A stretch of 44,389 nt of DNA from Nanobdellota archaeon (GCA_018830945.1 JAHJRD010000002.1:1-44389); one strand, 5' to 3'; counted from the stretch's first letter, positions 6,084 through 26,616 are shown. The notes: generated by a model from the letters alone, not told the origin. Translations and numbers: made by a program.

Positions 6084-6340
6084 AATGGCATATAATTAAA
6101 TGGTTATATAAAAGGCTTGTGATAAGGAAAAGCAGTAAAGGCGGATTTCTGCGGCTAAAAAAGGGCGGTAAAGGCGGCTTTGGTTTTATTGCTTTAATTG
6201 TTTTTCAATGAAGGAAATAAGTGAATTGGAGGGGCTTTCATAACATCTGCCTTTTTAGTGGCAACAAACAGAAAGGCTTAAATATGGGCTGTATATTACG
6301 CTATTATCCCAAGAAATAGCGCATAATGGGAGCAAATAAA

Positions 6341-8664: not shown

Positions 8665-8689
8665 AAGAAATGAATAGGGAGAAATAAAA

Positions 8690-9478
8690 ATGAAAACACC
8701 AAAAGCAAAGCTTGAAGAACTGGAACATATGCTGGTTAACTCTATTAATCATGAACTTAGCACATTTTATAATCCCTGTTTTCATAATGAACCGGGATAT
8801 GACTACGATTTAGATGAAGACATTCCAATGGAAGTTATAAGAGAAGTTATCAAAAGGTATTTGGATGTGGGCTGGCAAGCGGGATATCATAAAAAATGGG
8901 GCATAAACAGGCACGGCGGAAAGATAGATGTTATCATATTCAGAAAAAGAGGGGTTTCCGAAGCAGGTGAAACAGAAAGCCTAGGGGAGGAATGCAGGGG
9001 GTGTAATTTAACAAAACAAGAAAAAGAAAAGCTTGGGCTTGACAAAAAAGTGCAGATAGTTTGGGATGATGAGATACAAGGGTTTAAGGCTGAAGGCAAG
9101 GCGGTGGATGTTATCCCCCTGGGAACGCCTATGCTCGCCAGAATCTACTGTGTCTCTTGCGATTACGGCGGGGATACTTCGTATAAGGCAACAAGAAATG
9201 CGGTGCCTTTTGACAGGATAAACGAAGCATTCAACGCTTACCTTAAGGAAAATCCATACAAGACATCAATGGAAGGGGTGCGGGCGAAGCTTGATGCAGC
9301 AAGGCTGGATGCAAACGCCTCTTTGCTGGAAAAAGCAAAATATTTCAGTGTAGGAAACCGATACTCAACCAAGATGTCCAGTTTAGGCTTGGGGATAGAT
9401 GAGAAGCCGCAGAAAACAATAATTGTGCCTGTTGCACTGTATCGTGATAAAGAAAAAACAAAAAAAGGAGGCAAGTAA
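8690..9478 (+). CDS. Operon-A gene 3: hypothetical protein
   Basis: 262-aa ORF. Its N-terminus MKTPKAKLEELE and upstream context gggagaaataaaaATG duplicate those of gene 1 (MKTPEAELERL). No known motif recognised. Confidence 0.55.
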   Translation: MKTPKAKLEELEHMLVNSINHELSTFYNPCFHNEPGYDYDLDEDIPMEVIREVIKRYLDVGWQAGYHKKWGINRHGGKIDVIIFRKRGVSEAGETESLGEECRGCNLTKQEKEKLGLDKKVQIVWDDEIQGFKAEGKAVDVIPLGTPMLARIYCVSCDYGGDTSYKATRNAVPFDRINEAFNAYLKENPYKTSMEGVRAKLDAARLDANASLLEKAKYFSVGNRYSTKMSSLGLGIDEKPQKTIIVPVALYRDKEKTKKGGK

Positions 9479-9479
9479 A

Positions 9480-10292
9480 ATGACAGCCAATCCATGCAAA
9501 TCAAGGATAATGAAAGAAAGCGGAGAAATCTTAGAAGCGCATTTCCACAACGGCTTCCATCCTGCGAAGGATATTATAGCCCTGAAAGCAGAGGGGCTTG
9601 AAGTGATAACCGCAATGGAGCTTGCAGAGGCAAGAATTGCAAGCAAAGATATTCCTCCTGTTGTCAGGGAGATTTGGTCCCCGCAATTTAACTGCGTCGC
9701 TGGCAAAATACGCGCGCCAGGCAGCCCGATTCTCACAGATATGTTCTTTTTAGCTGAGAATTTCAATTACATGCTCAACGGAGACATACTTGTTGCATCC
9801 CGCGAATACAGCCCTATCCTGAGGTTTCCGGAAAAAGCACAAGAAAGACACAAATATGGCAAGGAGTTTTATCTTGATGACGCCATTGTTAATGAGCTTA
9901 TGGCTCATGCGGAAACAGACCCTAAAAAAGCAATAAAAAGCGGGGTCCTGCGCATACAGGGCTGGAGAGGCGGATTGGCTGACCGCTATTTTATGGAACT
10001 GCCTACAATGTATCTTGCAGGATACCCGCTCGCGCAGTTCCTTTTCAGGAATTTTGCAGGACCATACGGCCGCTTTCTCAACAGCCTTGGGGAAACAAGC
10101 ATCCCCGTCGCTGCAGCGCACTCAAATTACGCAACGCGGCAGGAAAAGCCGTTCGCAAGGCCTTTAGTAATGGGGCATATTGACTATCCTGAACTTGACG
10201 GCGATAATGAAGATGTATATAATGGATATCATTCCATCCTTTACGGCAGTGTTTGCGGAATGCGCCGGATACACGGAGCTAATGCACAATGA
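9480..10292 (+). CDS. Operon-A gene 4: hypothetical protein
   Basis: The ATG at 9480 lies 1 nt after the gene-3 stop and is preceded by aaaggagg. The ORF-track start at 9423 is a TTG inside gene 3. No known motif recognised. Confidence 0.55.
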   Translation: MTANPCKSRIMKESGEILEAHFHNGFHPAKDIIALKAEGLEVITAMELAEARIASKDIPPVVREIWSPQFNCVAGKIRAPGSPILTDMFFLAENFNYMLNGDILVASREYSPILRFPEKAQERHKYGKEFYLDDAIVNELMAHAETDPKKAIKSGVLRIQGWRGGLADRYFMELPTMYLAGYPLAQFLFRNFAGPYGRFLNSLGETSIPVAAAHSNYATRQEKPFARPLVMGHIDYPELDGDNEDVYNGYHSILYGSVCGMRRIHGANAQ

Positions 10293-10990
10293 TAGGCGCT
10301 TTTTTTGAAGGGCTTGATGAAATAATGAAGAATTATGAAGCATATCTGCCATGCACACCAAAGCCATTTGAGCTTACGCCTGTAGCACATAGAGCATTCA
10401 GGGAAGCTTGTGGTCTGGAATTGCCAATCTTGACGCCTGAGCAGATTAATCTTTTTCTGCAGGCAACGACCGCATTTCAGGGCAGTAAAAACTACTCATT
10501 CAATACAGGATTGTTCCTTTCAAGGCTGATGCAGGACAGCCATAAAGCGGGGCATTCAAAGTTTGACCTTGATACCAGTGCTCTGGATAAGCAAGTGGAA
10601 TATATTGGATACGATCTTTCTGGAACAGAAAAGTGCCCAGTACAACTATTGATACGAAACAATGCAGGCTATGGATTATGTGAGCATGCAAGATATGTGA
10701 AGGTTTATGCAAGGCGCGTTGGCGACTGGTGCGGAATGAACGCCCAAGACCTTACAGTCATCGCTGAAAAAGTGGGATATGGCTGCGGCGACCATTCAAT
10801 GTGCATGACAGTCTATGCTGACGAAGTGGGGAACTACTGCGGCTTTGATTCATGCAGAATGACAGTGCATACCGGAAAAATAGGAGAGAATTATGGGTGC
10901 GGCGAAGAAGAGATATGGAAATTTACATTAAAAGAGCGCAGCCTAAGAATGATGGCAAAGCTGAAACGCGCGCTCGCAAACGGGCTGTAA
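10289..10990 (+). CDS. Operon-A gene 5: paralog of gene 1 (shared central domain plus degenerate Cys-containing 19-aa repeats)
   Basis: INLFLQATTAFQGSKNYSFNTGLFLSRLMQDSHKAGHSKFDLDTSAL aligns with INRFLQVTIAYKAHEKYGNNTGLFVTRLIQNSYDAGYDSFRLDTRAL of gene 1. The C-terminal repeats are VGDWCGMNAQDLTV / VGYGCGDHSMCMTV / VGNYCGFDSCRMTV. The start overlaps the gene-4 stop (ATGA). Confidence 0.6.
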   Translation: MIGAFFEGLDEIMKNYEAYLPCTPKPFELTPVAHRAFREACGLELPILTPEQINLFLQATTAFQGSKNYSFNTGLFLSRLMQDSHKAGHSKFDLDTSALDKQVEYIGYDLSGTEKCPVQLLIRNNAGYGLCEHARYVKVYARRVGDWCGMNAQDLTVIAEKVGYGCGDHSMCMTVYADEVGNYCGFDSCRMTVHTGKIGENYGCGEEEIWKFTLKERSLRMMAKLKRALANGL

Positions 10991-13879: not shown

Positions 13880-14311
13880 ATGACTGCAAAAGAAATCCAC
13901 AAAGAGCACATAAAGGAGCACATACAGGAAATTGAAGATGCAATAGCAATAGGCATAGAAAGAAGGCCCGCAACAATCGGGCTACATGTTTCCGCGTGCT
14001 CGATAGAGCTCTTGGAATTGTACCTGCATGCAATGGGCAAGATAACCGCCGGGACAATGATTAAGCATGGATGGTTCAAGGCTCCCAAGCCCGGGCAAAA
14101 GATTGAGCCCTTGGCTGACAGGAAGCTCGGAGTCAGCTTTCCTGCAAAAGACGATATTCTTTCCCTAATGTATACCATAGAGGATGAAAGAAACAAGACA
14201 ATATACGGCAAGCCAAGCAATGCCGGCGTAAGCGCGATTCTGGCGGCATTCCAAAAGCTGCACAAGATTATAAAAGAAAGGCTGCATGGCTTGGGTGAAG
14301 AAATTGAATAG
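13880..14311 (+). CDS. HEPN-like helical protein, cognate of NTase 14286-14921
   Basis: Helical 143-aa protein with EDERNKTIYGKPSNAG, the same R-N-x(3-5)-Y-G motif as the other two NTase partners. It overlaps the downstream NTase gene. Confidence 0.5.
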   Translation: MTAKEIHKEHIKEHIQEIEDAIAIGIERRPATIGLHVSACSIELLELYLHAMGKITAGTMIKHGWFKAPKPGQKIEPLADRKLGVSFPAKDDILSLMYTIEDERNKTIYGKPSNAGVSAILAAFQKLHKIIKERLHGLGEEIE

Positions 14312-14921
14312 GCAGACACCGCGCGCAATTGCCTATTGCTATGATGCATTGGGCTTTCTTTTTATGGAGCCTGATGCATATGCTCTTATAAACAGCATTT
14401 ACCTGCACGGCTCTGCAGCAAGAGGCTCGCTTACGGAAAAAAGCGATATGGACCTGTTTTTAGATACGGCAGATGAAAACGCAGGAGCAATAGAAAAAAT
14501 CGCTGTCAATGCGATAAAGCGGTTTTATAATTCAAATGATTATGAAAAATGGAAACGCCTTGGTTTTTTGCATACAATCTCAGTAATGGCAGGGGCATTG
14601 GAGAAATGGGAGCTTAAGCAAGGCATTATGGCTGACGGCATATTATTGTACTCAAAAAAAACCGCTTTAATGCCGGCTGAACGCAGGGTGATGTTCATAT
14701 TTAAAATTCCAAAAATAAAAAAGAAATACCTGAAGTTTACAAGGGCCTTTTTCGGTAGAAAAGAAGCAGGGTACAAAGATAAGGGAATTCTTGGAAAAGT
14801 AAAAGGCGATAAGATAAGCGCGAATGCCATAATTGTGCCTAAAGAGAGCCAGCAGGAAACAGAGAGGGCGCTGCAAAAAGAAGGCATAGATTATTCCATG
14901 AAGGAGATTTGCCTTCTGTAA
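14286..14921 (+). CDS. Nucleotidyltransferase-domain protein (MNT-like)
   Basis: IYLHGSAARGSLTEKSDMDLFLD is the G-S-x(n)-D-x-D NTase motif. Its stop codon is the first TAA of direct-repeat copy 2. Confidence 0.75.
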   Translation: MAWVKKLNRQTPRAIAYCYDALGFLFMEPDAYALINSIYLHGSAARGSLTEKSDMDLFLDTADENAGAIEKIAVNAIKRFYNSNDYEKWKRLGFLHTISVMAGALEKWELKQGIMADGILLYSKKTALMPAERRVMFIFKIPKIKKKYLKFTRAFFGRKEAGYKDKGILGKVKGDKISANAIIVPKESQQETERALQKEGIDYSMKEICLL

Positions 14922-14984
14922 TGGAGGATAGTGGAAGGAGCAGCCTCCGGCGTGGTTTTATTGTTTTCAATGGTTATGCACGCT
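14918..14984. repeat. Direct repeat copy 2 (67 bp), right boundary of TA cassette
   Basis: See 13041-13110. This copy contains the stop and last three codons of the minus-strand gene 14974-16773, and the stop of the plus-strand NTase gene. Confidence 0.9.
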
Positions 14985-16773
14985 TAAATGCCGAATATTT
15001 TTCGTATGGCAAAACTGATAATTTTAATAGATAGTTGGGATCTTTGCGTAATCTGCCAATAACCCCATAAGTATCTTTTAGCAGCCTTCCTATTTCTCCA
15101 ATCCGCGCTCTCGCAACCCGCAGGCTGGCGTCAGCAATATCCCCTCTAACTGTTTCAAGCAAATCAACCTCACGCTCAAGATGTCCCTTAATTTGGTATA
15201 AAGCAAAGCCTACTCTTGGAACCACTTCAGGATTAAATTTTGCAAATTCACGCGGACTGTTAATATGCTTACGCGCCAATTCAAGCAGCCTCTTATTCTC
15301 ATCAAGTCTTGCTTCACATCTTGGCTTTCCATCAAGCCTTTGTTTATATTCATTTTTTGCAAGTCCTAATAATTGCCCGTCTGGCAAATGATTAAATCTT
15401 CCTGCAAAAAAATTGCGGCATGCTTTTACATCCCCCTGGATAGCAGCAAATTGCGGTATATATTCATCTAAATCTGCAAGGCACTCTTCTGCCTGCCGGA
15501 CATCCTTTTCCCTATTTTTTAAGTAACGTTGCGCACGGTCCAGGACCACCCTGTCAATAGCACCAGGCAAAAGAATATCTTCAAACCCCCCAATCTCTTC
15601 AATTTGCCTAAAAACTTCCTGCCTGCTTCCATTACAGCCATTTCTTCTTATTTCAAAAGCACAGGGAGCTATGTATGATTTCCAAATCTCTTCAGCAAGA
15701 GCCTTTGGGCGCTTTAATTCAGTTCTCCATTTAATGCCTAATCCTTTTGATAATTCCCTGCAATAATCTTCAATATCTCTTTTTGTCCTATCCGGCACCT
15801 CATCAATATAGTCACGAAATGTGAGCCTTATAATCTCATGCGGGTCTGCTAATTCTGCAAGTGTTCTCATGTCCGAAAAATCAGTAAACTTATACCCATC
15901 GTTAGTCAAAACAAGATTTTCAGAATGGGCGCATGTATGTATCAGCATGGAATCCAGAGTCATCATCTCCACAAACTGCTGCGCCAACCCCATCGCCGTT
16001 GCATTTGGCTTATTTTTTATTTTGGGGAAGGCATCATTTCCATTAAAAGATGCCCTAACAGAAGAAGGAGATAACCGCAAGAGATAAGCCTGGTCTGTGC
16101 TGTCCCCGCAATACCTTAATTCCCCATCATACTCAACCAGCAATGCAGCCCTGGGGGAATTTGCATTTCGGAATGCAATACTCTTTTCATTTCTAAGTAT
16201 TTCCAGATTCCTGAATTCCCTTCTGCCTTGTGCTACCTCAAGCCCTCCCCATCGCGCGTGCCCTGAACCAAAATACGACATGCGCGTTTGCAAATCTGTG
16301 ATAGAATTGTTTCCATTAGGCACGCCAACGCCCTTAATCTCTACAACAAACTCCTTGCCTGCCTGCTTAACAACAACGGGCTTTCTCTTGTAAAGCAAAA
16401 CTCCTGTTCTTCCCTGGGGCTTGCTTTCATTGGTTGCATACATCAAAGCAGAGAACTCACTATCTTTATCTGAAGAGGTTCTAAGTATTGAGCCTGCATC
16501 AAACACTTCTCTTACTTGTTCTGGCAATGCCTCATAATCATTGCTTTTTTTAAAAGCCTTTATTTTTGGCTTTTCAACCCTCAGCGGAACAATCTGTGCT
16601 TTTCTGTGAGGATCCCATCCAAATACGCATCCTAAAAAACATTCTCCAAGATTCCTGTCTGTCCTGATTTGATGGCTGTCTGAAACTATTGCCTCTATTG
16701 TTTCGTCTTTCCCTCTGCAAAAACCAATAATGTTCCGTGTTTCTGTGCCAATATTTGGATATGGATTAGTCAT
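14974..16773 (-). CDS. Large uncharacterised protein, N-terminal protein-kinase-like fold (possibly atypical or inactive) plus helical C-terminal half
   Basis: EFVVEIKGVG is beta3-Lys-like. LIHTCAHSENLVL aligns to the I-H-x-D-x-H-x-x-N catalytic loop, with Cys where the Asp is expected. KFTDFSD is DFG-like. The ORF-track start at 16791 is a GTG; I used the ATG at 16771-16773, preceded by gaggg. Confidence 0.4.
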   Translation of the reverse strand: MTNPYPNIGTETRNIIGFCRGKDETIEAIVSDSHQIRTDRNLGECFLGCVFGWDPHRKAQIVPLRVEKPKIKAFKKSNDYEALPEQVREVFDAGSILRTSSDKDSEFSALMYATNESKPQGRTGVLLYKRKPVVVKQAGKEFVVEIKGVGVPNGNNSITDLQTRMSYFGSGHARWGGLEVAQGRREFRNLEILRNEKSIAFRNANSPRAALLVEYDGELRYCGDSTDQAYLLRLSPSSVRASFNGNDAFPKIKNKPNATAMGLAQQFVEMMTLDSMLIHTCAHSENLVLTNDGYKFTDFSDMRTLAELADPHEIIRLTFRDYIDEVPDRTKRDIEDYCRELSKGLGIKWRTELKRPKALAEEIWKSYIAPCAFEIRRNGCNGSRQEVFRQIEEIGGFEDILLPGAIDRVVLDRAQRYLKNREKDVRQAEECLADLDEYIPQFAAIQGDVKACRNFFAGRFNHLPDGQLLGLAKNEYKQRLDGKPRCEARLDENKRLLELARKHINSPREFAKFNPEVVPRVGFALYQIKGHLEREVDLLETVRGDIADASLRVARARIGEIGRLLKDTYGVIGRLRKDPNYLLKLSVLPYEKYSAFKRA

Positions 16774-16932
16774 CTTTTGGAAGGCCCTCACGAATTATCA
16801 ATTCAGTTGTCTTTCATGGCTCTTTTGGGATGTTTTTTCATATTTAAAGCTTCCTATTCTGTTGTCACTTATTAATAGCGAAACATTTATAAACAGGAAA
16901 AGCAGCTGAAATAACAAGATTCAGGGGGTAAA

Positions 16933-17295
16933 ATGAACGACTATGAAAAAACAGTCCTTAGAAGAGTTCTCGAAATAGGCGGAAAGCTGCTTGAGGGCGT
17001 TGCAGTTTATGGGCTATTCTATAATGCTATTAACCCGAATCAGGACAGCCTGCGCAACGCGTATATAGCGGCTGGAACAGGAGTTGCAGGAATATGCTTA
17101 GACAAGATTGGAAATAAGATTGTAAGCCATGTAAAGGAAATAAAGCATATACGCGAAAGAAAGCAAATACAAAAACAGCTTGAGGAAATCGTAAGTGAAA
17201 ACAATATCAGGATGGGGCTTCCTGCTGAGACAAGGCCCGAAGACAGGGTGAAGGCAAGAGCTGCAGAATATGCAAGAATGCAAGGGAGAAAATGA
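16933..17295 (+). CDS. Operon-B gene 1: small hydrophobic/charged protein (putative membrane protein)
   Basis: 120-aa ORF with an aggggg Shine-Dalgarno-like (SD) site 6 nt upstream. The N-terminal half is hydrophobic (GVAVYGLFY...AAGTGVAGICL) and the C-terminal half is charged. Its stop overlaps the next start (ATGA). Confidence 0.55.
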   Translation: MNDYEKTVLRRVLEIGGKLLEGVAVYGLFYNAINPNQDSLRNAYIAAGTGVAGICLDKIGNKIVSHVKEIKHIRERKQIQKQLEEIVSENNIRMGLPAETRPEDRVKARAAEYARMQGRK

Positions 17296-18131
17296 TGAGA
17301 AAAGCAATAATCCAGTTTACAAACAAATGCAATGCCCAGTGCAGGCACTGCGCGTATGAATGCGGGCCAAAAGGAGAAACAATGAATAAGAAAGACATTG
17401 AAAAGGTTCTGAAGCATTTGCCGGAAACAATCGAATATTTTGTTATATCAGGAGGAGAGCCCCTTGTGGCAATGGATGAGCTAAGGCATATGCTTTCATA
17501 CATTAGAGAGCAAAAACTAATTCCAAATGCAAGAATCCATGTGGAAACAAACGGCTTCTGGGCAAGGGATGCTGAATCAGCTTATAGGGTATTAAAAGAG
17601 CTGCACGAGTTTGGTGTTCATGGTGTTGCGCTTGCAAGCATGGATAAGTTCCACAGGGAAGCAGGAATAAACACAGAAAATCTTGAATGGAATCCTTCAA
17701 CTCCCATTTACCTTGCGCTGGAAAGGCTTTACAAGGAAACAGGAAGCACAAGGGATTATCCTATTGAAGTTGAGGCAAAGGGCGCAGTGCACGGAGTCCT
17801 GCCTGTCGGAAGGGCAAGGAATTTGCCTGAAGAGGAATTCGCAGTGCGCTCTGTGTGCGATATCAGCCTGGAGAATGAAGTTACAATAGACCCAAGAGGC
17901 ATTGCATATCTTTGCTGCTGGAGAACTATCCCCTCAATCGGCTCTGCAATTGACAGGCCTGTTGATGAATTGGTTAGAGAAGCAAGCAAAGACAAAATAA
18001 TGCAGGCGCTGCTTGAGCAAGGGCCTGAAGGAGCTGCAAAAGAATTGGGCGTTTACAAGGAAACTGATGAAGAAATATACAGGATAAATCCCTGCGTGAA
18101 GTGCGAGGAGATTTTTAGGGGTGTGAAATGA
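17292..18131 (+). CDS. Operon-B gene 2: radical SAM enzyme with SPASM/twitch-like C-terminal Cys motifs
   Basis: CNAQCRHC is the CxxxCxxC radical SAM cluster motif and SGGEPL is the SAM-binding motif. The C-terminal VC-x13-G-x4-C(C) and C-x2-C (CVKCEEIF) fit a partial SPASM signature. Confidence 0.8.
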   Translation: MMRKAIIQFTNKCNAQCRHCAYECGPKGETMNKKDIEKVLKHLPETIEYFVISGGEPLVAMDELRHMLSYIREQKLIPNARIHVETNGFWARDAESAYRVLKELHEFGVHGVALASMDKFHREAGINTENLEWNPSTPIYLALERLYKETGSTRDYPIEVEAKGAVHGVLPVGRARNLPEEEFAVRSVCDISLENEVTIDPRGIAYLCCWRTIPSIGSAIDRPVDELVREASKDKIMQALLEQGPEGAAKELGVYKETDEEIYRINPCVKCEEIFRGVK

Positions 18132-18940
18132 ATCTTCTACTGCAAATAACAAAAGCATGCAACCTGCAGTGCAGGCACTGCCATGACAGCTGCGGGCCTG
18201 ACAGGACAAGTATGGATGCGGAAACACTAGAAGTAGTTGTCGGCAATATTCCGCAAGGCGCAAAACAAATCATAATAAGCGGAGGCGAGCCCTTGGTTAA
18301 GCCAAAGCTTTTCTGGCACGCTATGGATTGTATTGCGGCTAACAGGCAGAATTTTCCTAAAGCTGTGCTTAGTCTCCAGACAAACGGCTTCTGGGCAAAG
18401 AATACAGATGCAGCATATGCCATACTAAAACAACTTTATGAAAAAGGGCTTGACAGGCTTGTCCTTACAGGGCTTGACAAATACCATGCAGAGCAGGGAA
18501 TTGACTTAAGTTCGCTGAGTGAAACTGAAAGCCCTTTTGCATATGCAATGCAAAGGCTAGGGACTCCTTTTACAGTTATAAGAGAGGTAGATAACCAGGG
18601 AATAATGCCGTTTGGCAGGGCAAAGGACTTGCCTGCGGAAGAACAGGCTAAAAAGTCCCAGTGCGAGGTGCCATGGGGTTTTGACAATCATCTTACTGTT
18701 GACACAAGCGGCCAGCTTTATCCTTGCTGCTGGAAAGCTACTCCTTCAATGGGCTCTGCAAAAGACAAGAGTATTGAAAATATTCTAAGGAATGCAAAGA
18801 AGAATAAAATATTTCATGCTCTTGAAAGAGGCGGGCCAAAAGAAGCTGCAATAAAACTTGACATTTACAGGGAGCAGGATGAGCAGCTTTACAGGCACGA
18901 ATGCAGGATGTGCGAGGAAATCTTCAGGGGGATGAAATGA
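18128..18940 (+). CDS. Operon-B gene 3: radical SAM/SPASM-like paralog of gene 2
   Basis: It carries CNLQCRHC, SGGEPL, C-x(n)-G-x4-CC (SGQLYPCCW) and CRMCEEIFRGMK. It is collinear with gene 2, and both end in CEEIFRG(V/M)K. ATGA overlaps occur at both ends. Confidence 0.8.
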   Translation: MNLLLQITKACNLQCRHCHDSCGPDRTSMDAETLEVVVGNIPQGAKQIIISGGEPLVKPKLFWHAMDCIAANRQNFPKAVLSLQTNGFWAKNTDAAYAILKQLYEKGLDRLVLTGLDKYHAEQGIDLSSLSETESPFAYAMQRLGTPFTVIREVDNQGIMPFGRAKDLPAEEQAKKSQCEVPWGFDNHLTVDTSGQLYPCCWKATPSMGSAKDKSIENILRNAKKNKIFHALERGGPKEAAIKLDIYREQDEQLYRHECRMCEEIFRGMK

Positions 18941-19839
18941 CAGCATTTGAACAAATCAAAGACAGCCTTGAGATGACTGCTTTGGTTAGAAGTGCTGTTA
19001 CTGATAATACAGAAGAGGTTTCATTAAAGCATGACCTGACAATGGAAGAATATACCCTTTTCAAGAAAATGTATGTAAATGACCCTTACAGCACCATAGG
19101 GCATATGAACGCTTTCATGGGAAGAATGAGAAATAATTATAATGTGATGGACCACCATGTTGATGCAGCGCTTGAGCTTGAGTGTTTGGTTGAGGAGGAG
19201 GATTTAAGAGAGAATATTGAGTTCAACAGCGAGATAAAGTGCGAGATTCCAGGGTTCGTAAGCCAGGGCTACAGAGCATTGTGGAATGATGGAAGAGACA
19301 CAGGCAGGAGTAGAGAAAAGGTTATTGTCGACAAAAGGACAATTAAGGGTACATTAAAAATTGCAAAGCTTTTCGCAATAGGGAACAAAGATGATGAAGA
19401 GAAGACTCTTAAAGATATTGCAAGGTACCTGCAGAGTATCTTGAAGTATGACCTTGAATTTATTGATGCTATAGCAGAAGAAAAACGTGATGTTAGCGTT
19501 ATGATCAATTTATATGAAACTGTTGGAAAAGCCATATGCAGGCATCATGCCCTCTTTTATCAGCTTGCAGTGCAGGAAGCAGGGATACCGGCAAAAATGA
19601 TACCAGGGCAATATGAAGGGCGCCAAAGAGGACATATGTGGGGAAAAGCCAAGCTAAACAGGAAAAGCGCGATTCTGGATTTAACTAATTATGAAAATCC
19701 GGTTATAATATCTGAAAGGTTAATAAACTGTTATGAGAAAGCTAAAGCAGGATATGCAAAGAAAGGAATCAATATAACATATATCCCGTGGAACCCGAGA
19801 ACCTGTTATTACAAATACAGCACAAGGGGTTTGCAATGA
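18937..19839 (+). CDS. Operon-B gene 4: transglutaminase-like cysteine peptidase-fold protein
   Basis: GKAICRHHALFYQLAVQEAGIPAKMIPG fits C-x2-(F/H)A-x(n)-GIPAR. GHMWGKA fits H-x-W and ILDLT supplies the Asp. Together they form the Cys-His-Asp triad pattern of the transglutaminase core. The start at 18937 overlaps the gene-3 stop; the track start at 18901 lies inside gene 3. Confidence 0.7.
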   Translation: MTAFEQIKDSLEMTALVRSAVTDNTEEVSLKHDLTMEEYTLFKKMYVNDPYSTIGHMNAFMGRMRNNYNVMDHHVDAALELECLVEEEDLRENIEFNSEIKCEIPGFVSQGYRALWNDGRDTGRSREKVIVDKRTIKGTLKIAKLFAIGNKDDEEKTLKDIARYLQSILKYDLEFIDAIAEEKRDVSVMINLYETVGKAICRHHALFYQLAVQEAGIPAKMIPGQYEGRQRGHMWGKAKLNRKSAILDLTNYENPVIISERLINCYEKAKAGYAKKGINITYIPWNPRTCYYKYSTRGLQ

Positions 19840-19946
19840 TTCGCGAGCAGAAGCAAAGTGAATATTCGAATGAGGGCAGCGAATGAGAATGCGAACAATA
19901 AGAATAGCTCTTCTTGAGCTTGTCACTGGATGCCTGGAGGAAAGAA

Positions 19947-20633
19947 ATGAGCCTCATTGAAATATTAAAAACTCCTGAAATGCTTGAAGCAGCAAAAAAT
20001 GTCCATGCAAGGCTTGAAGAAGAACATGAAACCATTAGGAGAATACAACCCTTATGGCTTCCTGCTGTTGAGGAAAGGCTTCTTGGAGAGCGCCTTGCTT
20101 GTGTTGCAGGCAAAATAAATGATTTGCTTGACATCCATCCTCAATTGCCAGGTATTGAATATAACCGCTCTTATAGAGAAACTACTTATGATAAAAACCG
20201 CAGATGTATATTACTTTGCTATCAAGACATACCTCTTTTAGAAGTTGACGCAGCAATAGCGCATGAGTATTGCCATTACCTTCAGCACCATGTTTCAGGC
20301 AGGGCAGAACAATGGGCTTTTCATGCTGAGCTTAAAGAAGGATTTGCAAGGGGCATTGAATTGATTATAGCAAGGCAAACTGCAAAAGAGAAGGGCAATA
20401 ACCACTTTTCAAAGAAGGCCATTGAGATTGCAGCTAGTGACATGGAGATATTTCTGAAGCAATACAATAACAGGCAGGCAATGCCGGCAGGACAAAAAGC
20501 ATACTCACTGGGCGTGACAGCGATGCTTGTTGCTGAAAGCATGCACGGAAATATGATTTACAGAAGGCTGATAAAGTCAACCAGGCCTTATCGGCTTTTA
20601 GAAGGGTTTTTGTTAGGAGCTGTAACTCCATGA
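19947..20633 (+). CDS. Operon-B gene 5: HExxH zinc metallopeptidase-like protein (gluzincin-type)
   Basis: AIAHEYCHYLQHH is followed 21 residues later by LKEGFARG, fitting HExxH...E(G)F(A) as in MA-clan gluzincins. The start at ATG 19947 is preceded by ctggagg. The ORF-track start at 19914 is a TTG. Confidence 0.55.
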   Translation: MSLIEILKTPEMLEAAKNVHARLEEEHETIRRIQPLWLPAVEERLLGERLACVAGKINDLLDIHPQLPGIEYNRSYRETTYDKNRRCILLCYQDIPLLEVDAAIAHEYCHYLQHHVSGRAEQWAFHAELKEGFARGIELIIARQTAKEKGNNHFSKKAIEIAASDMEIFLKQYNNRQAMPAGQKAYSLGVTAMLVAESMHGNMIYRRLIKSTRPYRLLEGFLLGAVTP

Positions 20634-20684: not shown

Positions 20685-21404
20685 TTAATGCATTGAGAAG
20701 TTTTCTCTCAAGAATACCATCATCATCTCATTGCCTGATGTTGTATACACTCTGTATGCATCTGACAGGTATTCCTTCTTAAGAAACAAATCGCCTAATT
20801 TGTTAAGCCTGTCCTTGTCGCCTGCTGCTGCAAACGCTTTTTCTGCAAACGGCAAAGCCTCATTCCTCTCTGACTTAACGCACCTGTCTCCAACTTCTAT
20901 TAATTTCATCCTGTTGCCTAAAAGCTGGAACACTTCAATCGCAGAGTCAAACTTCTCTCTCTTTATGCATTCTTCTCCGACTTTCAAAAGCATGTCCTTG
21001 TCATTCAAAAGCTTGTACGCCCTTATTGCGTCAAGCATCTGGCCTTCCCTTAAGCAGGTCTCGCCTGTTTTCCTTAATCTGTCCATATTTTCAGCCATGT
21101 GGTAGCAGTCAATTGCATCAGAAAACATCTGCTTTGACCCAAAGTCATCGCCAATCTCAACAAGCTTTTGCTTGTTTCCTGTCTGCACAAATGCCTTTAT
21201 TGCTTCAGGCACCTTGCCTTTTTTCATGAGCTCTTCGCCGACTGCATTCAAAACACTTACCCTCATGTCATCGCTGAACATTGAAAGGTTAACGTTTTCA
21301 ACACCTTTCTTCAAAATAATGGGGACCATTTTTTCATAAGTTTCTAAGCCCCTGGCATTAAATTTCTCAACCAATCCTGGCACGGCTTTTTTTATGTGTT
21401 CCAT
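20685..21404 (-). CDS. Helical-repeat protein (about 36-aa repeats), function unknown
   Basis: Five repeats follow the pattern A-(I/F)-x2-(F/Y)-x5-(D/N)-x3-L-x2-(V/L/T)G(D/E), for example AIKAFVQTGNKQKLVEIGDDF, AIDCYHMAENMDRLRKTGETC and AIEVFQLLGNRMKLIEVGDRC. The ATG at 21404 fits the TATA spacing better than 21413. Confidence 0.5.
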   Translation of the reverse strand: MEHIKKAVPGLVEKFNARGLETYEKMVPIILKKGVENVNLSMFSDDMRVSVLNAVGEELMKKGKVPEAIKAFVQTGNKQKLVEIGDDFGSKQMFSDAIDCYHMAENMDRLRKTGETCLREGQMLDAIRAYKLLNDKDMLLKVGEECIKREKFDSAIEVFQLLGNRMKLIEVGDRCVKSERNEALPFAEKAFAAAGDKDRLNKLGDLFLKKEYLSDAYRVYTTSGNEMMMVFLRENFSMH

Positions 21405-21549
21405 GTAAATCATCCTCGCTTTTTATAAATATAATTCTGTTAGATGAGATGAATTGCTTATTTATATAGTTATTGCTTTTTGTCTGGAAATTGAGTACTA
21501 TTGTGTTATCACTGGAGAATATAACAAAAAGAGATTATTGTAAAGGATG

Positions 21550-21777: not shown

Positions 21778-22278
21778 ATGGAAAATATCTGGACAGCGCT
21801 GCCTGCGGCAGAAAGAGACAACTATATCAGATTTCATGAAACAGCATACAAGGATGACCTAAAGCACGCAGAAGACAATGCAATAAAATACCCGAGATGG
21901 GCAATCATTTCAGGGTATTATGCAATGCACGATGCAACAAAGCTGTTCCTTGCTAAAAAATTTGCGATAAAAATTAGCAGCCCTGAAATACACGAAAAAG
22001 CAATAAAAGCGCTGAAGGATAAAATCCAAGATGAAAAAACAAAGAAAAGATTGCTTGAGATGCTGGAAAAAGCAAAAGAAGCATACTTTAATATCGAGCG
22101 CCTTAAAGAGAAAGTACTGCCTGAAATATTGCGCCAGGGCAGGCATGAAAGAGGAAAAACCCAGTATTACAGCGAGGATTATTCTGAAGAAAAAAAAGCA
22201 GGCAAGGAAAAGGCAGTTTATTTCCTGGACAAGATTGTAAACCCTTACATACAGCTAATCGAGGGGCTGATGCAATAA
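21778..22278 (+). CDS. HEPN-like helical protein, cognate of NTase 22278-22868
   Basis: 166-aa helical protein with GRHERGKTQYYSEDY, an R-x(4-5)-Y motif as in the other two partners. Its stop overlaps the next ATG (taATG). Confidence 0.5.
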   Translation: MENIWTALPAAERDNYIRFHETAYKDDLKHAEDNAIKYPRWAIISGYYAMHDATKLFLAKKFAIKISSPEIHEKAIKALKDKIQDEKTKKRLLEMLEKAKEAYFNIERLKEKVLPEILRQGRHERGKTQYYSEDYSEEKKAGKEKAVYFLDKIVNPYIQLIEGLMQ

Positions 22279-22868
22279 TGCTCATAGATATTTGCCTCGG
22301 GACAAGAACAGCATGGAAGATACTTCTGCTGATGTCTGAAACACCTGGAAAAGGGTTAACACGAAAACAGATAATGGAACAGACAAAAATAGGGAATAAG
22401 GTGCTTATTAAATCTATGCTCCTGCTGCAAAAGTCAGATATAATCAGCGGAATAAAGCAAGGGAGGCAGTTTATTTATAAAATGAATATGGCAAATCCAA
22501 TGACAAATGCAATAATAGGGGTAATTTTCACAGAGAGGCAGCAGCTTAACGCCCCTTACTTTTCAACCGCCATTGTAATACGGGAATTTGTTTATGAGCT
22601 TACGAACATAAATCTTGAAAACATGCAAAAAATATTCTTATTTGGCAGCGTGGCAAAGCATACCGCTAACATAAACTCTGATATAGATATTGCAATAATA
22701 TCAAAAGAAAAAAGCCTGAAAGACGAGCTGCAGATTACAGGAATCTGCGGGAAAATCAAAGAAAGGTTCAAGAGAGAAATACAGCCGCATTATTTTACAG
22801 AAGAAGAATTCAAAAAAAAGAATAAGCTTGCCGAAGAAATAATGAAAGACGGCATCAGGCTGTTATAA
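22278..22868 (+). CDS. wHTH plus nucleotidyltransferase-domain protein (MNT-like)
   Basis: The N-terminal LTRKQIMEQTKIGNKVLIKSMLLLQKSDII is wHTH-like. IFLFGSVAKHTANINSDIDIAII is the G-S-x(n)-D-x-D NTase motif. Confidence 0.75.
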   Translation: MLIDICLGTRTAWKILLLMSETPGKGLTRKQIMEQTKIGNKVLIKSMLLLQKSDIISGIKQGRQFIYKMNMANPMTNAIIGVIFTERQQLNAPYFSTAIVIREFVYELTNINLENMQKIFLFGSVAKHTANINSDIDIAIISKEKSLKDELQITGICGKIKERFKREIQPHYFTEEEFKKKNKLAEEIMKDGIRLL

Positions 22869-25279: not shown

Positions 25280-25621
25280 ATGAAAAGCCACAAACTGCTG
25301 AAAAACCCTGAAGCGTGCAGGACATGCGCAAAGTGCTGCAGGATTTTCACGTTTTATGACCATAATGGCGATGGCTTTATAGACAGGATAAGGCTTTTGA
25401 AAACAAAGAAGATTAAAGTTGAGGAATCTGACTTTGCAACAAATGAAGGGAAAAGCCTCTTCAGAGTTATACTTAACATTCCCTGCTCTGCGCTTGTTAA
25501 AAAGAAAGGAAAGTATTTCTGCAAATTGTTTGGCAATAAAAAAAGACCGCAGATGTGCAATGAGTATCCCTATAATATGACTGACTGGGAAAAAAGGTTT
25601 TGCAAGGGTTTGAAGAAATGA
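25280..25621 (+). CDS. YkgJ/UPF0153-like Zn- or Fe-S-binding protein (CxxCxxCC)
   Basis: ACRTCAKCCRIF is the CxxCxxCC signature, and further Cys lie in IPCSAL...YFCKLF...PQMCNEYP. Its stop overlaps the start of the downstream radical SAM gene (ATGA at 25618-25621). Confidence 0.55.
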   Translation: MKSHKLLKNPEACRTCAKCCRIFTFYDHNGDGFIDRIRLLKTKKIKVEESDFATNEGKSLFRVILNIPCSALVKKKGKYFCKLFGNKKRPQMCNEYPYNMTDWEKRFCKGLKK

Positions 25622-26616
25622 AAGAGGCGCTTTATTACAAGAAGCTCAAAGATAATTCTGTCCAGTGCGTTCTATGCCCTCACTTCTGCACTATAAAGGA
25701 AAATGAAAGAGGAAAATGCAATGTCAGGGAAAACAACGAAGGAAAGCTTTACTCGCTTGTCTACGGAAAGCCGAATTCAATAGCAATTGACCCTGTTGAG
25801 AAAAAGCCATTGAACCATTTCTTTCCAGGCACAATGACATTTTCAATAGGAACAGCCGGCTGCAACTTAAAATGCCATTTCTGCCAGAACTTTGAATTAT
25901 CACAAAGCAAGCCAGAAGATCTTCCTTTCTATGACATGCCTGCTGAGAAGGTTGTTGAAGAGGCGTTGAAAGCGAAATGCCATTCAATCTCTTACACATA
26001 TTCAGAGCCGACAATATTCTATGAGTATATGATTGATACTGCTAAAATAGCCAGGAAAAAAGGATTGAAAAACATCTTTGTCACAAACGGCTTTATCAAC
26101 CCAGAGCCTTTGAAAGAGCTTTGCAAATACATTGATGCTGCGCATGTTGACCTGAAAGGGTTTGATGAAAAAGTATACTCAAAAACATGCGAGGCAAGAT
26201 TAAAGCCTGTATTGGAAACACTTCAAACATTAAAGAAAAACAATATGTGGTTTGAGGTGATTAACCTTGTGATTCCGGGCATTAATGATGACATGAAAAA
26301 GATTAAGGAAATGTGCGATTGGCTTAAGAAAAACATTGGAGAGGACTGCGTATTGCATTTCAGCAGGTTCTTTCCTTGTTATTTAATGAAAGATACCCAG
26401 CCAACGCCTGTTGAAACCTTAAACAAAGCAAAAGAAACAGCTGAAAAAGCAGGATTGCATTACATTTATCTGGGAAATATAGCAGAAGAGGAGAATACTT
26501 ACTGCAAAAAATGCAAAAAATTATTGATAAAAAGATACAGATATGATATTCTCGAGAATAATGTGAAAAATGGGAAGTGCGCTTATTGCAATGAGAAGAT
26601 TGCAGGCGTGTTCTAG
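25618..26616 (+). CDS. AmmeMemoRadiSam-system-type radical SAM enzyme (PFL-activase-like)
   Basis: The N-terminal auxiliary Cys cluster is VQCVLCPHFCTIKENERGKCNVR. It also has AIDPVEKKPLNHFFPGT and the radical SAM motif GTAGCNLKCHFCQN. The C-terminal CKKCKK...CAYC forms a Zn-ribbon. The ORF-track start at 25600 is a TTG. Confidence 0.75.
   Translation: MKEALYYKKLKDNSVQCVLCPHFCTIKENERGKCNVRENNEGKLYSLVYGKPNSIAIDPVEKKPLNHFFPGTMTFSIGTAGCNLKCHFCQNFELSQSKPEDLPFYDMPAEKVVEEALKAKCHSISYTYSEPTIFYEYMIDTAKIARKKGLKNIFVTNGFINPEPLKELCKYIDAAHVDLKGFDEKVYSKTCEARLKPVLETLQTLKKNNMWFEVINLVIPGINDDMKKIKEMCDWLKKNIGEDCVLHFSRFFPCYLMKDTQPTPVETLNKAKETAEKAGLHYIYLGNIAEEENTYCKKCKKLLIKRYRYDILENNVKNGKCAYCNEKIAGVF

Follow-up and report, generated by a model that had tools for sequence, protein, structure and literature searches.

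Gene organization and chromosomal context

The window analysed here, a chromosomal stretch of 44,389 nucleotides from a tiny symbiont of the DPANN archaea (Nanoarchaeia; Nanobdellota archaeon, GCA_018830945.1 JAHJRD010000002.1:1-44389), contains five open reading frames on the plus strand that we call g1 (120 aa, 16933-17295), g2 (279 aa, 17292-18131), g3 (270 aa, 18128-18940), g4 (300 aa, 18937-19839) and g5 (228 aa, 19947-20633). ATGA stop/start overlaps are found at 17292 (g1/g2), 18128 (g2/g3) and 18937 (g3/g4), and the Shine-Dalgarno sites of g2 to g4, as read from the sequence, sit within the final codons of the preceding gene. g5 follows g4 after 107 bp and has GGAGG just upstream of its ATG. 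The N-termini of homologues placed the start of g4 at 18937, not at 18901 where a longer ORF begins, and that of g5 at 19947, not at TTG 19914. Identical 4-nt overlaps occur between the homologous genes in four related loci (L001, L003, L004 and L018; such numbers designate loci of relatives throughout), and because they recur the coupling goes beyond chance. These features identify the region as a single operon, predicted to be co-transcribed and translationally coupled, as claimed in the initial annotation, whose gene layout, overlaps, gap and quoted motifs were all recovered by the ORF calls and in the sequence. Searches of NCBIfam, PADLOC and the literature found no named pathway with this gene combination, in agreement with the same annotation.

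Upstream of g1, at 16877-16893 on the plus strand, a BRE-like AGCGAAA (16877-16883) is followed by a TATA-like CATTTATAAA (16884-16893), from whose agreement with the archaeal BRE/TATA consensus we infer a promoter role. In seven loci the first cassette gene, whichever it is, is preceded by the conserved block AGCGAAACATTTATAAAC. Alignment of the seven loci also revealed a conserved 5' leader (16894-16932, plus strand) with a GGGGG Shine-Dalgarno site (16924-16928) shortly before the ATG of g1; its consensus reads ...AAAAGCAG..AAAATAGCA.GATT..GGGGGT AAAATG.

The slot that holds the cassette is bounded by genes that lie outside it. On the left, a Pol-beta-type nucleotidyltransferase (Pfam Polbeta; 14286-14921, plus strand) is paired with a 143-aa ORF (13880-14311) and has counterparts of 82-87% identity in L001 and L020 that stand directly 5' of the cassette promoter. 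On the right, a convergent TPR-like gene of 242 aa (20685-21413, minus strand) has homologues in six loci (L001, L003, L004, L018, L020 and L026), 83-95% identical and always directly 3' of the cassette. Nucleotidyltransferase pairs of toxin-antitoxin-like type flank the operon on both sides, which supports the earlier placement in an accessory region; the downstream pair strongly matches PADLOC candidate-defence models and the upstream nucleotidyltransferase does so weakly. The same region of L001 carries a reverse transcriptase and an AAA ATPase.

The radical SAM proteins g2 and g3

g2 and g3 are collinear paralogues, as first described, with 39% identity over 277 columns (E 7e-74), and both match Pfam Radical_SAM (4e-14 for g2). 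In our tree g3 belongs to subfamily gamma; g2 is assigned to subfamily alpha. The cysteines of g2 are C13/17/20 (+C24), C189, C208-C209 and C268/C271, those of g3 C11/15/18 (+C22), C179, C200-C201 and C259/C262. In g2 they make up the CxxxCxxC cluster, accompanied by a GGE SAM motif, and a twitch domain (C189, C208, C268, C271), and g3 exceeds the Pfam SPASM cut-off (25.3 bits vs 21.5). Each protein is thus predicted to have an N-terminal radical-SAM [4Fe-4S] site and one auxiliary-cluster set of cysteines (twitch, 'T-SPASM'-like), and the partial SPASM/twitch signature reported before is upheld. The family is very small, about 17 close relatives having been found among 5.8 billion proteins, each from a metagenome-derived Nanoarchaeia genome or from an unassigned contig of a metagenome. 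One bacterial protein, a distant relative with 29% identity, is encoded within a cluster of Agr quorum-sensing genes, multiple radical SAM genes, an S8 peptidase and an ABC transporter, a context typical of RiPPs.

Profile and predicted structure show g2 and g3 to be homologous over their full length to EpeE/YydG, the RiPP epimerase of Bacillus subtilis (operon epeXEPAB/yydFGHIJ; PDB 8ai1-8ai6), which inverts the configuration of amino acids in a toxin peptide and is also the closest structure. The family profile matched 8ai1 with E 3.7e-35 and 125 bits (query 3-287, chain 30-323), the second-best family reaching 8e-12, and the AlphaFold2 model of g2 (pLDDT 89) gave EpeE as best Foldseek match (TM 0.67, E 4e-11), with the twitch enzyme BtrN as runner-up. 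Neither protein falls into a cofactor or tRNA-modification family, an outcome that would have refuted the initial annotation. Motifs common to the family and EpeE are NGFW, D.(F/Y)H, G(R/A)AK, DG..YPCC and a C-terminal CxxC; the single auxiliary-cluster set (C-x15-18-CC...CxxC) is shared as well. The CC pair is invariant in 18 of 18 family members and aligns with Cys222-Cys223 of EpeE. EpeE has one auxiliary cluster and an extended twitch domain, and experiments support its Cys223 as the hydrogen-atom donor (PMC13012085; PMC8326336). C209 of g2 and C201 of g3, aligned with this residue, are candidate hydrogen-atom donors. Several observations count against an epipeptide-like interpretation: identity to EpeE in the structural alignment is only about 16%, YydG is the top NCBIfam match of both proteins but at 57-61 bits lies far below the curated cut-off of 300, and at the position of EpeE D210 g2 has Glu and g3 His. 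A conserved cysteine beside a cluster ligand is suggestive and not proof of epimerase chemistry.

anSME, QhpD and BtrN share with g2 and g3 the partial-TIM-barrel radical SAM core and the C-terminal auxiliary Fe-S domain, and are secondary structural matches. Their sequence and profile matches are, however, much weaker than that of EpeE, and their targets (sulfatases, QhpC and 2-deoxy-scyllo-inosamine) have no counterpart in the cassette. The N-terminal halves of the radical SAM proteins also match the PADLOC pVip models (1e-6 to 1e-8), and viperins appear among the structure and profile matches. Together with the variable hot spot beside nucleotidyltransferase modules that match PADLOC candidate-defence families, and the reverse transcriptase and AAA ATPase of the L001 region, these matches could indicate a viperin-like or BtrN-like defence system that modifies a small molecule or nucleotide, its antiviral or toxic metabolite being tailored or activated by amidohydrolases. 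We consider this quite unlikely, given that the viperin matches cover the shared radical SAM core only (residues 5-90) and are far weaker than that to EpeE, that the auxiliary-cluster domain, invariant here, is absent from viperins, and that the cassette encodes no nucleotide kinase or other viperin partner.

Hydrolases and the scar of a replaced gene

g4 is predicted to be a transglutaminase-fold hydrolase or transamidase with a Cys-His-Asp triad (C201, H233, D248), which agrees with the pattern noted initially: it scores 27.3 bits with Pfam Transglut_core (cut-off 23) and the triad is invariant across seven homologues. Its N-terminal domain of about 95 aa is all-helical in the AlphaFold2 model (pLDDT 69), and Foldseek returned weak matches to TglA, a TGase, the CPR-C4 protease and vasohibins. 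Lasso-peptide B proteins (McjB-type) combine an RRE with a transglutaminase-fold Cys-His-Asp leader peptidase within a peptide-maturation cluster, and g4 would similarly act as a leader or processing peptidase. In contrast to these proteins, its N-terminal domain is not predicted to be a PqqD-like winged helix; the cassette has no lasso cyclase, and Foldseek with g4 retrieved no lasso B proteins.

g5 carries HEYCH at residue 106 and EGFA at residue 131 (HExxH-x20-E), by which, together with the family alignment, it resembles gluzincin metallohydrolases. The previously noted motif is well founded, H106, E107, H110 and E131 being invariant in 36 sequences. The protein has no match in Pfam or NCBIfam and belongs to a tiny unnamed family (of 1.84 billion cluster representatives, only 53 matched at E<=1e-3); its zinc site has weak matches to M1 aminopeptidases and ColH. 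A relative of g5 is encoded directly 3' of a radical SAM gene in L009/L013. We read both g4 and g5 as probably active hydrolases, because their catalytic residues are invariant in homologues.

The interval before g5 (19836-19946, plus strand) proved not to be the plain spacer it appeared to be, since it matches the starts of carbon-nitrogen hydrolase genes. One stretch, ATGATTCGCGAGCAGAAGCAAAGTGAA (MIREQKQSE...), corresponds to the hydrolase start ATGATTCGCGAGCAACAGCGAAGCGAA (MIREQQRSE...) of L020, and a second stretch, ATGCGAACAATAAGA, to the hydrolase start ATGCGAACAATAAAA of L018. The comparison identifies the 107-bp spacer as the leftover stub of such a gene's 5' end and g5 as its recent replacement, not an original fifth member of the operon.

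The small protein g1 as a candidate substrate

g1 contains two segments rich in Gly and Ala that are weakly hydrophobic, has a charged helix at its C-terminus, and matches nothing in Pfam, NCBIfam or PADLOC. It had been described as a small membrane protein, which is unconvincing as its best 19-residue Kyte-Doolittle window is 1.15 and the usual threshold about 1.6. By its position and its homologue in L018 (73% identical and likewise just 5' of the first radical SAM gene), g1 qualifies as a possible substrate of the radical SAM enzymes or as their partner; no homologue was found in the remaining cassettes. A hairpin-like small protein adjoins the radical SAM genes in four of nine cassettes; in the window and L018 it is of g1 type, and L009/L013 and L027 have an unrelated one of 91 aa. 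The small ORF is missing from four others (L001, L003, L004, L026), and the intergenic gaps of the cassettes revealed no conserved small ORF. Being hairpin-like and coupled to g2, g1 is the best substrate candidate, although a weak one. Against an epipeptide-like interpretation count its length, which is long for an epipeptide precursor, its even conservation (73%) without a variable core, and L004, which has orthologues of g3 and g4 and lacks g1.

Proteusin precursors are similar in size (about 100-145 aa) with hydrophobic cores, and their radical SAM enzymes (PoyD, OspD, PlpD) convert L- to D-residues with an enzyme cysteine as hydrogen donor; multiple epimerisations can give membrane-channel peptides (PMC8326336). 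The enzymes of the present operon instead resemble EpeE, have an auxiliary cluster and lack an RRE, and g1 has no nitrile-hydratase-like leader detectable with Pfam or NCBIfam.

The enzymes might also act on the same peptide or protein target by another radical chemistry, such as crosslinking (thioether, C-C or C-O), dehydrogenation or backbone scission, the hydrolases still processing the product. The structures next nearest to EpeE are the twitch dehydrogenase BtrN, the sactisynthase CteB, anSME and SuiB; sactisynthases and epimerases are described as divergent relatives that both abstract the Cα hydrogen (PMC8326336), and the 91-aa protein of L009/L027 has a conserved cysteine. g1, however, has no conserved cysteine, its single Cys being Leu in L018, which makes thioether chemistry unlikely if g1 is the substrate. 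The donor-cysteine equivalent is invariant, and the family profile matches EpeE, along the full length, more than 20 orders of magnitude better than any other radical SAM structure. Other chemistry appears unlikely on this evidence.

Reshuffled cassettes in related genomes

The cassettes of relatives contain one to three radical SAM genes, transglutaminase-like genes, carbon-nitrogen hydrolases and sometimes an HExxH or small hairpin protein, and the tree resolves at least six radical SAM subfamilies that are combined differently between genomes. The exact five-gene set was found in the window only, so the linkage first proposed does not stand as a whole; its radical SAM plus transglutaminase-like core recurs in four other genomes, g1 has a counterpart in one, and an HExxH gene lies beside a radical SAM gene in one. 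Carbon-nitrogen hydrolases are present in most relatives and lost from the window. The recent arrival of g5 as a replacement, and a gene content that is different in each genome, might suggest chance adjacency of unrelated accessory genes in a variable region. We regard this as extremely improbable, as the overlap coupling has been retained from genome to genome, the nine cassettes, which occupy two chromosomal sites, draw on the same four enzyme families, and seven loci have a single conserved promoter in front of the cassette.

Gamma-type radical SAM genes (g3 has orthologues with 76% identity in L018 and 69% identity in L004) are directly followed by a g4-type gene in three of the three genomes that have them. 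Dedicated maturases are known among radical SAM enzymes, anSME acting on sulfatases and QhpD on QhpC, and this pairing, the anSME structural matches, the absence of an exporter and the lack of a precursor in many cassettes would fit enzymes that install an activity-enabling modification in the co-encoded hydrolases or another cellular protein, with no secreted peptide. The distribution of the genes argues otherwise: L020 has only transglutaminase-like (g4-type) and carbon-nitrogen hydrolase genes, without any radical SAM gene, and L026, L027 and L009/L013 have radical SAM genes without a transglutaminase-like gene. The hydrolase triads are moreover ordinary and complete, and we find the maturase explanation quite improbable. 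L020 also implies that the hydrolases do not depend strictly on the radical SAM enzymes, which counts against an epipeptide-like interpretation.

Cassette proteins diverge far faster than flanking proteins (27-76% identity to relatives against 70-95%), within a conserved slot and behind a fixed promoter. This divergence, the shuffling of subfamilies, the gene-replacement scar and the adjoining nucleotidyltransferase modules that match PADLOC candidate-defence models point to conflict-type evolution. A catabolic module that converts and degrades D-residue- or isopeptide-containing host peptides (e.g. of the cell wall) to feed an auxotrophic symbiont would account for the amide-bond hydrolases that make up every partner enzyme (transglutaminase-fold, nitrilase-superfamily, gluzincin), for the predicted cytoplasmic location of all cassette enzymes and for a minimal cassette of hydrolases only. 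A nutritional pathway is expected to be conserved, whereas here we see combinatorial shuffling and evolution far faster than in the flanks, and no importer is linked. We know of no radical SAM epimerase with a catabolic role, and scavenging seems highly improbable.

Proposed function

The interpretation that we favour, with about an even chance of being correct, is that the operon encodes an epipeptide-like cassette for Cα modification and processing of a peptide or protein. It sharpens the cautious initial proposal of a peptide- or protein-modification system, which remains the best-supported reading, through the full-length EpeE/YydG homology and the kept catalytic cysteine. Each radical SAM enzyme would cleave SAM and take the Cα hydrogen of a residue in the peptide or protein it binds, possibly g1, and the enzyme cysteine (C209 in g2, C201 in g3) would return hydrogen to the opposite face, giving D-residues. 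Different paralogues may act on different sites or sequences. g4 and g5, or carbon-nitrogen hydrolases in relatives, would then cut or deamidate the modified product, as EpeP does in Bacillus, and the product may serve in conflict, e.g. as an effector or a toxin active on membranes. What counts against this reading is the absence of an exporter, an immunity gene and an RRE from the cassette.

The Bacillus epeXEPAB operon encodes a precursor, an epimerase and a peptidase (PMC12871923), and the present operon likewise has a small ORF just 5' of the radical SAM genes and peptidase genes 3' of them. It differs in its archaeal (DPANN) host, in having two to three paralogous radical SAM enzymes instead of one, in the unrelated peptidases (transglutaminase-fold, novel gluzincin, nitrilase-superfamily) in place of the membrane-anchored EpeP, in the absence of an ABC transporter, and in the upstream ORF, which has no relationship to EpeX and is missing from most cassettes. 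The reshuffled gene sets behind one promoter suggest a fast-evolving and so far undescribed peptide- or protein-modification system.

Organization of the operon

The ORF listing of the window returned five forward-strand genes at the positions that the initial annotation had claimed, namely g1 (16933-17295, 120 aa), g2 (17292-18131, 279 aa), g3 (18128-18940, 270 aa), g4 (18937-19839, 300 aa) and g5 (19947-20633, 228 aa). An ATGA overlap is present at all three junctions between g1 and g4, the spacing between g4 and g5 is 107 bp, and a GGAGG precedes the ATG of g5, again as first described. Every downstream start has a G-rich Shine-Dalgarno site within the final codons of the preceding gene (...QGRK, ...FRGVK, ...FRGMK and ...TRGLQ, each followed by the stop), and the N-termini of homologues favour the starts at 18937 and 19947 over longer ORFs. 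These data show that the five genes form a coupled operon, here called the cassette. Pfam matches above the cut-off were Radical_SAM for g2 and g3, SPASM for g3 and Transglut_core for g4, while the same scan gave no match for g1 and g5.

The radical SAM enzymes

The two radical SAM (rSAM) proteins are paralogues, as had been proposed, with 39% identity across their full length (E 7e-74), and both are members of the superfamily (PF04055; 53.6 bits for g2 and 38.1 bits for g3, cut-off 29.5). The motifs CN(A/L)QCRHC and SGGEPL were found in each of them. Within the rSAM family the GGE motif is invariant (18/18 members) and the cluster-motif Cys are kept in every member with a complete N-terminus, two sequences being N-terminally truncated. 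The family is very small, since a search of 5.8 billion proteins gave 22 matches, of which about 17 are close. Only a few are named, all from Nanoarchaeia metagenome genomes, and the rest are unnamed metagenome sequences.

The NCBIfam scan placed neither g2 nor g3 in any curated family. The best match of both was a partial one to TIGR04078, the model for YydG (also EpeE), the epipeptide epimerase of Bacillus subtilis, with 60.8 and 56.9 bits and an alignment confined to the N-terminal ~120 residues. Membership of the curated YydG equivalog was rejected on these scores (57-61 bits vs a cut-off of 300), though the proteins are homologues. A profile built from the 18 family members aligned end to end with the EpeE structure 8ai1 (E 3.7e-35, 125 bits; query 3-287, chain 30-323), and the next rSAM structure followed at 8e-12. 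The AlphaFold (AF2) model of g2 (pLDDT 89, pTM 0.88) likewise had EpeE as the first Foldseek match in the PDB (TM 0.67, E 4e-11), ahead of the twitch enzyme BtrN, the sactisynthase CteB, anSME and SuiB. Outside the rSAM core, the family and EpeE have in common the motifs NGFW, D.(F/Y)H, G(R/A)AK, DG..YPCC and a C-terminal CxxC.

A twitch domain was defined as a C-x9-15-G-x4-C segment with extra Cys ligands for one auxiliary [4Fe-4S] cluster and without the second SPASM half. The auxiliary-cluster Cys of g2 are arranged as C189-x13-G203-x4-C208 followed by C268-x2-C271, and the second half (CxxCx5CxxxC), which we sought in g2, is absent. The missing second half in g2 and g3 implies that a single auxiliary cluster should be expected. 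Pfam SPASM matched g3 (25.3 bits vs a cut-off of 21.5) and not g2. The earlier reading of a partial SPASM/twitch signature is thus supported by the Cys layout, by the SPASM match of g3 and by a fold like those of EpeE and BtrN; the Cys set of g2 and g3 and the modelled fold of g2 agree with a twitch (half-SPASM) domain holding a predicted cluster. The C-terminal Cys set, C-x18-20-CC-x57-58-CxxC in g2 and g3, parallels the C-x15-CC...CxxC of EpeE.

In EpeE, the extended twitch ('T-SPASM') domain houses a single auxiliary [4Fe-4S] cluster, and Cα epimerisation is completed by an H atom donated from Cys223, which lies on the peptide face opposite SAM (PMC13012085; PMC8326336). With the EpeE numbering fixed by the PDB mutant sequences 8ai6 (D210A) and 8ai3 (C223A), C222-C223 (...YPCC...) aligns with a CC pair that is invariant in 18/18 family members and corresponds to C208-C209 in g2 and C200-C201 in g3. 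Judged from this alignment, g2 and g3 keep the equivalent of the H-atom-donor Cys, and we regard them as distant, full-length EpeE homologues with the catalytic Cys retained.

A small-molecule defence product was considered as a rival to peptide modification, and the corresponding viperin/pVip assignment was rejected: the rSAM core alone matches, and g2 and g3 have an auxiliary-cluster domain. The PADLOC pVip matches of both proteins reach 24-33 bits over residues 5-90 only, and with the family profile the PDB viperins appear at about 1e-7 vs 4e-35 for EpeE. A viral or mobile origin was also discarded, as the rSAM alignment, run against viral contigs, returned two remote matches only (25-29% identity).

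Several other radical SAM genes were observed. A divergent relative (37% identity) lies inside a coupled operon of ~12 nearly all uncharacterised genes in L005/L006 (2364-9769), together with a CxxCxxCC-like protein, a HEETH-motif protein and a Hydrolase_2 (SleB-like) protein; CheD-like deamidases suspected there by eye had no Pfam support. This operon may represent a second, unrelated use of the rSAM type. The nearest bacterial relative (29% identity) is in a Eubacteriales MAG (L023, 1-11242), in a cluster that encodes AgrB, an AgrD-like 59-aa ORF, a LytTR regulator, a histidine kinase, two more rSAMs (three in total), an ACP-like protein, an S8 peptidase, an ABC transporter and a phosphopantetheinyl transferase, and that looks like an uncharacterised quorum-sensing-controlled RiPP-like cluster. 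In the window, a third radical SAM gene (25600-26616, forward strand, 338 aa, Pfam 3e-23), unrelated to g2 and g3, is probably a housekeeping enzyme outside the cassette. A 332-aa radical SAM gene is found in L004 a few kb past the DRG gene.

The hydrolase partners

The transglutaminase core with a Cys-His-Asp pattern that had been read in g4 was recovered by Pfam above the cut-off (Transglut_core PF01841, 27.3 bits, cut-off 23), and the triad C201, H233 and D248 is invariant in 7 homologues from six genomes. In the AF2 model (pLDDT 69), the core comes after a ~95-residue N-terminal domain built of helices alone, and Foldseek gave weak matches to Streptococcus pyogenes TglA, a TGase, the CPR-C4 protease and vasohibins. 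Residues 1-96 are predicted to form five helices and zero strands at a local pLDDT of about 85-90. An RRE of the lasso-peptide B style, a PqqD-like winged helix with a three-stranded sheet, was therefore rejected for this domain.

For g5, Pfam and NCBIfam gave no match. Among 1.84 billion cluster representatives, exhaustive searching with HMMER recovered just 53 relatives at E<=1e-3, and H106, E107, H110 and E131 (EGxA) are invariant in the 36 aligned members, which backs the original 'HExxH gluzincin' call at the motif level (HExxH and the downstream Glu). Sub-threshold DUF6782 or Peptidase_M1 matches occur in 3/36 relatives, and the zinc site of the family profile aligns weakly with M1 aminopeptidases and the collagenase ColH. 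A named metallopeptidase family was rejected, as the Pfam and PDB profile searches gave motif-level, sub-threshold matches only; the motifs support a family without a name, assigned to the gluzincins (clan MA(E)) at motif level. The active-site motifs of g4 and g5 are thus intact in sequence.

Cassettes of relatives encode, in addition, carbon-nitrogen hydrolases of the nitrilase superfamily (CNh). The L018 protein matches CN_hydrolase PF00795 with 29.6 bits (cut-off 23.2), and the Glu-Lys-Cys triad is invariant in 7 CNh sequences of the relatives.

Cassette variation at a promoter-anchored slot

Eight further genomes or metagenome contigs yielded cassettes in addition to that of the window. 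In a neighbour-joining tree the rSAMs fall into at least six subfamilies, whose combinations differ between genomes. With TG for transglutaminase-like genes and TG1 for the g4 type, the window cassette reads g1-rSAMα-rSAMγ-TG1-CNh stub-HExxH, where g2 is rSAMα and g3 is rSAMγ. L018 has CNh-g1'-rSAMδ-rSAMβ-rSAMγ-TG1-CNh, without an orthologue of g2, and L004/L010 have rSAMγ-TG1-rSAMβ-TG2-CNh. The order is CNh-rSAMε-rSAMζ-TG2 in L001, CNh-CNh-rSAMε-rSAMζ-TG2 in L003 and a protein-kinase-like ORF followed by CNh-CNh-rSAMε in L026; L020 has TG1-CNh and no rSAM. At a second chromosomal site, L013/L009 have rSAMδ-rSAMε-HExxH followed by a gene for a 91-aa protein, and L027 has rSAMε and the 91-aa protein. 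One rival explanation is that the five genes are neighbours by chance. Judged by the absence from related genomes that was to refute it, the linkage first proposed gives a mixed result: it is not conserved as an exact set, but a coupled set of the same enzyme families clearly recurs.

Seven cassettes, including that of the window, occupy the same chromosomal slot, and in all seven a convergent TPR-like gene then follows (20685-21413, reverse strand, in the window), with a DRG GTPase after it where the contig extends (window, L001, L003, L004 and L020). The left flank is variable: a HerA-type ATPase lies upstream wherever the flank was recovered, and the pair of a 143-aa gene and a nucleotidyltransferase is present in the window, L001 and L020. 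Identity to the proteins of the window is 68-95% in the flanks (95% for the TPR-like protein of L018) and only 27-76% in the cassette. In front of their first cassette gene, the seven slot loci all share the block ...CACTTAT.AGTAGCGAAACATTTATAAAC...AAAATAGCA.GATT.GGGGGT AAAATG, which is kept whichever gene leads the cassette (g1, CNh, rSAMγ, TG1 or the kinase-like ORF). By its sequence, this block is a BRE/TATA-like promoter with a short leader and a Shine-Dalgarno site.

In L020 and L018, TG1 is followed by a CNh gene whose opening codons survive in the 107-bp spacer of the window (MIREQKQSE in the window vs MIREQQRSE in L020; ATGCGAACAATAAGA in the window vs ATGCGAACAATAAAA in L018), CNh being reduced in the window to this 5' stub. 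This indicates that g5 replaced a CNh gene in the window lineage. Taken together, the comparisons show that the cassette lies in an accessory region, is anchored to a promoter and is rapidly reshuffled.

The surroundings of the slot presented further features. Two small-ORF/nucleotidyltransferase pairs, described as toxin-antitoxin-like, flank the window cassette at 13880-14921 (143 aa and 211 aa) and 21778-22868 (166 aa and 196 aa). In relatives the first pair is conserved at 82-90%, and the second was not found in any of their fetched loci. The downstream nucleotidyltransferase (196 aa) has strong PADLOC candidate-defence matches (PDC-M05A 2.7e-21, PDC-S09 9e-14), and the upstream one (211 aa) a weak match to PDC-S09 (8e-5). 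An orphan 605-aa ORF (14974-16791, reverse strand) separates the nucleotidyltransferase gene from the cassette promoter; it had no match in Pfam, NCBIfam or PADLOC and shows, by eye, a possible kinase-like H..N...DF stretch. It is missing at this position in L001 and L020, in which the nucleotidyltransferase directly precedes the promoter, indicating an insertion specific to the window lineage. In L003 (5359-5796) and L026 (4864-5310), a Cys-rich protein of 145-148 aa with an N-terminal hydrophobic anchor is encoded just upstream of the cassette, where the 143-aa/nucleotidyltransferase pair otherwise sits; the two copies are 52% identical and the adjoining CN-hydrolases 91%. Between the TPR-like and DRG genes of L001 (GCA_028706745, 11533-15379) we found a reverse transcriptase (RVT_1, 362 aa), a 245-aa ORF and an AAA_14/DUF4143 ATPase. 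The cassette-adjacent region is thus itself a hot spot for accessory elements, here possibly one of retroelement or DGR type.

Elsewhere in the window, the intergenic segment 21530-21740 (forward strand) contains several perfect GC-rich hairpins (GGGCGCATTGCGCCC, GTTTCCATGCTTTGCATGGAAAC and, twice, GCACTnAAGTGC), with a folding energy z-score of -3.6 vs shuffles and no Rfam match, and may represent a repeat element or an ncRNA that has escaped annotation. The Rfam scan of the window returned tRNAs only; the third (43818-43921, reverse strand), missed by ARAGORN, spans 104 nt and probably contains an intron. Five consecutive uncharacterised genes (6326-10990, forward strand; 400, 384, 262, 289 and 233 aa) upstream of the HerA-type ATPase gave one Pfam match, a sub-threshold GXGXG on the first.

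Small proteins and the search for a precursor

The description of g1 as a small membrane protein did not hold up, as its best 19-residue hydropathy window (1.15) is not convincingly transmembrane. The protein has no detectable family in Pfam or NCBIfam and one homologue, at the same position in L018 (73% identity). Small hairpin-like proteins adjoin the rSAMs in 4/9 cassettes and are of two types, the g1 type and the 91-aa type, which have the architecture alone in common (BLASTP E 3.4, hhalign probability 0.2%); against Pfam, the 91-aa type gave a sub-threshold hint of SLATT_1 (E 0.012). No conserved precursor ORF of 15-110 aa was detected in the intergenic gaps of the window, L001, L003, L004 and L009 or in the short contig L013 as a whole, and relaxed tblastn with g1 and the 91-aa protein over the remaining cassettes found nothing. 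Another radical chemistry on a peptide would be an alternative to epimerisation; since g1 has no conserved Cys, epimerisation fits better than thioether formation.

Proposed function of the cassette

The function that we infer for the cassette is Cα modification and processing of a peptide or protein, a model to which we give even chances. Each rSAM would abstract a Cα hydrogen from the substrate and the enzyme Cys would re-donate hydrogen to the other face, giving L-to-D epimerisation, with the paralogues covering different sites. The transglutaminase-fold enzyme and the gluzincin (CN-hydrolases in relatives) would then cleave or deamidate the product, in a manner like that of EpeP, which processes EpeX in Bacillus (PMC12871923). 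That g1 is the substrate within this model seems doubtful.

The RiPP-typical layout of the L023 cluster and the small hairpin-like proteins beside the rSAMs count in favour of Cα modification and processing. Against it, four cassettes have no small ORF, g3 and g4 orthologues occur in L004 without g1, and the hydrolases of L020 occur without any rSAM. Less likely rivals are that the rSAMs serve the maturation of the co-encoded enzymes and that the cassette serves peptide scavenging. No exporter, immunity gene or RRE was found.

Among known systems, the epipeptide operon of Bacillus comes closest, and its core enzyme has the same fold, cluster set and catalytic Cys as g2 and g3. The cassette differs from epeXEPAB in the domain of life, in the number of paralogues and in every accessory gene, and it lacks a transporter and an EpeX-like precursor; no ABC transporter was present among the larger window ORFs scanned. 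An epipeptide cluster of the epeXEPAB type, defined by a short precursor like EpeX/YydF beside the epimerase, the membrane-anchored peptidase EpeP and the ABC transporter EpeAB, was therefore rejected: g1, of 120 aa and without a family, is absent from most cassettes, and the peptidases belong to other families. Proteusin epimerases of the PoyD type work similarly, but the enzymes are unrelated to g2 and g3. A full-text literature search found no paper in which radical SAM genes occur together with transglutaminase-like and carbon-nitrogen hydrolase genes, and nothing on epipeptide-type systems in archaea or DPANN. The kind of cassette, rSAM-dependent peptide modification, is known, and its partner enzymes and promoter-anchored shuffling are unusual.

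A bolder and improbable reading would make the cassette a DPANN 'expression slot', in which promoter-anchored, combinatorially reshuffled sets of EpeE-like paralogues and assorted amidohydrolases would produce a multiply D-configured, membrane-active effector. Its substrate would be a small hairpin protein such as g1 or another ribosomal product, and its targets hosts, competitors or viruses. If true, this reading would add a D-amino-acid RiPP class, the first in archaea, and a novel way of diversifying enzyme cassettes.

The compact (270-300 aa) twitch rSAM enzymes are of possible biocatalytic interest, and new processing chemistry could emerge from their partnership with enzymes of the transglutaminase fold, of the nitrilase superfamily and of a novel gluzincin type, which the literature searched does not describe. 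One conserved promoter, gene sets swapped among near-identical genomes and a replacement scar represent an unusual cassette-level diversification in a reduced genome. In the literature found, EpeE-type epimerases are described solely in bacterial systems. The archaeal branch, with its catalytic Cys apparently intact, would extend ribosomal D-amino-acid chemistry to the DPANN archaea, whose host biology is poorly understood.
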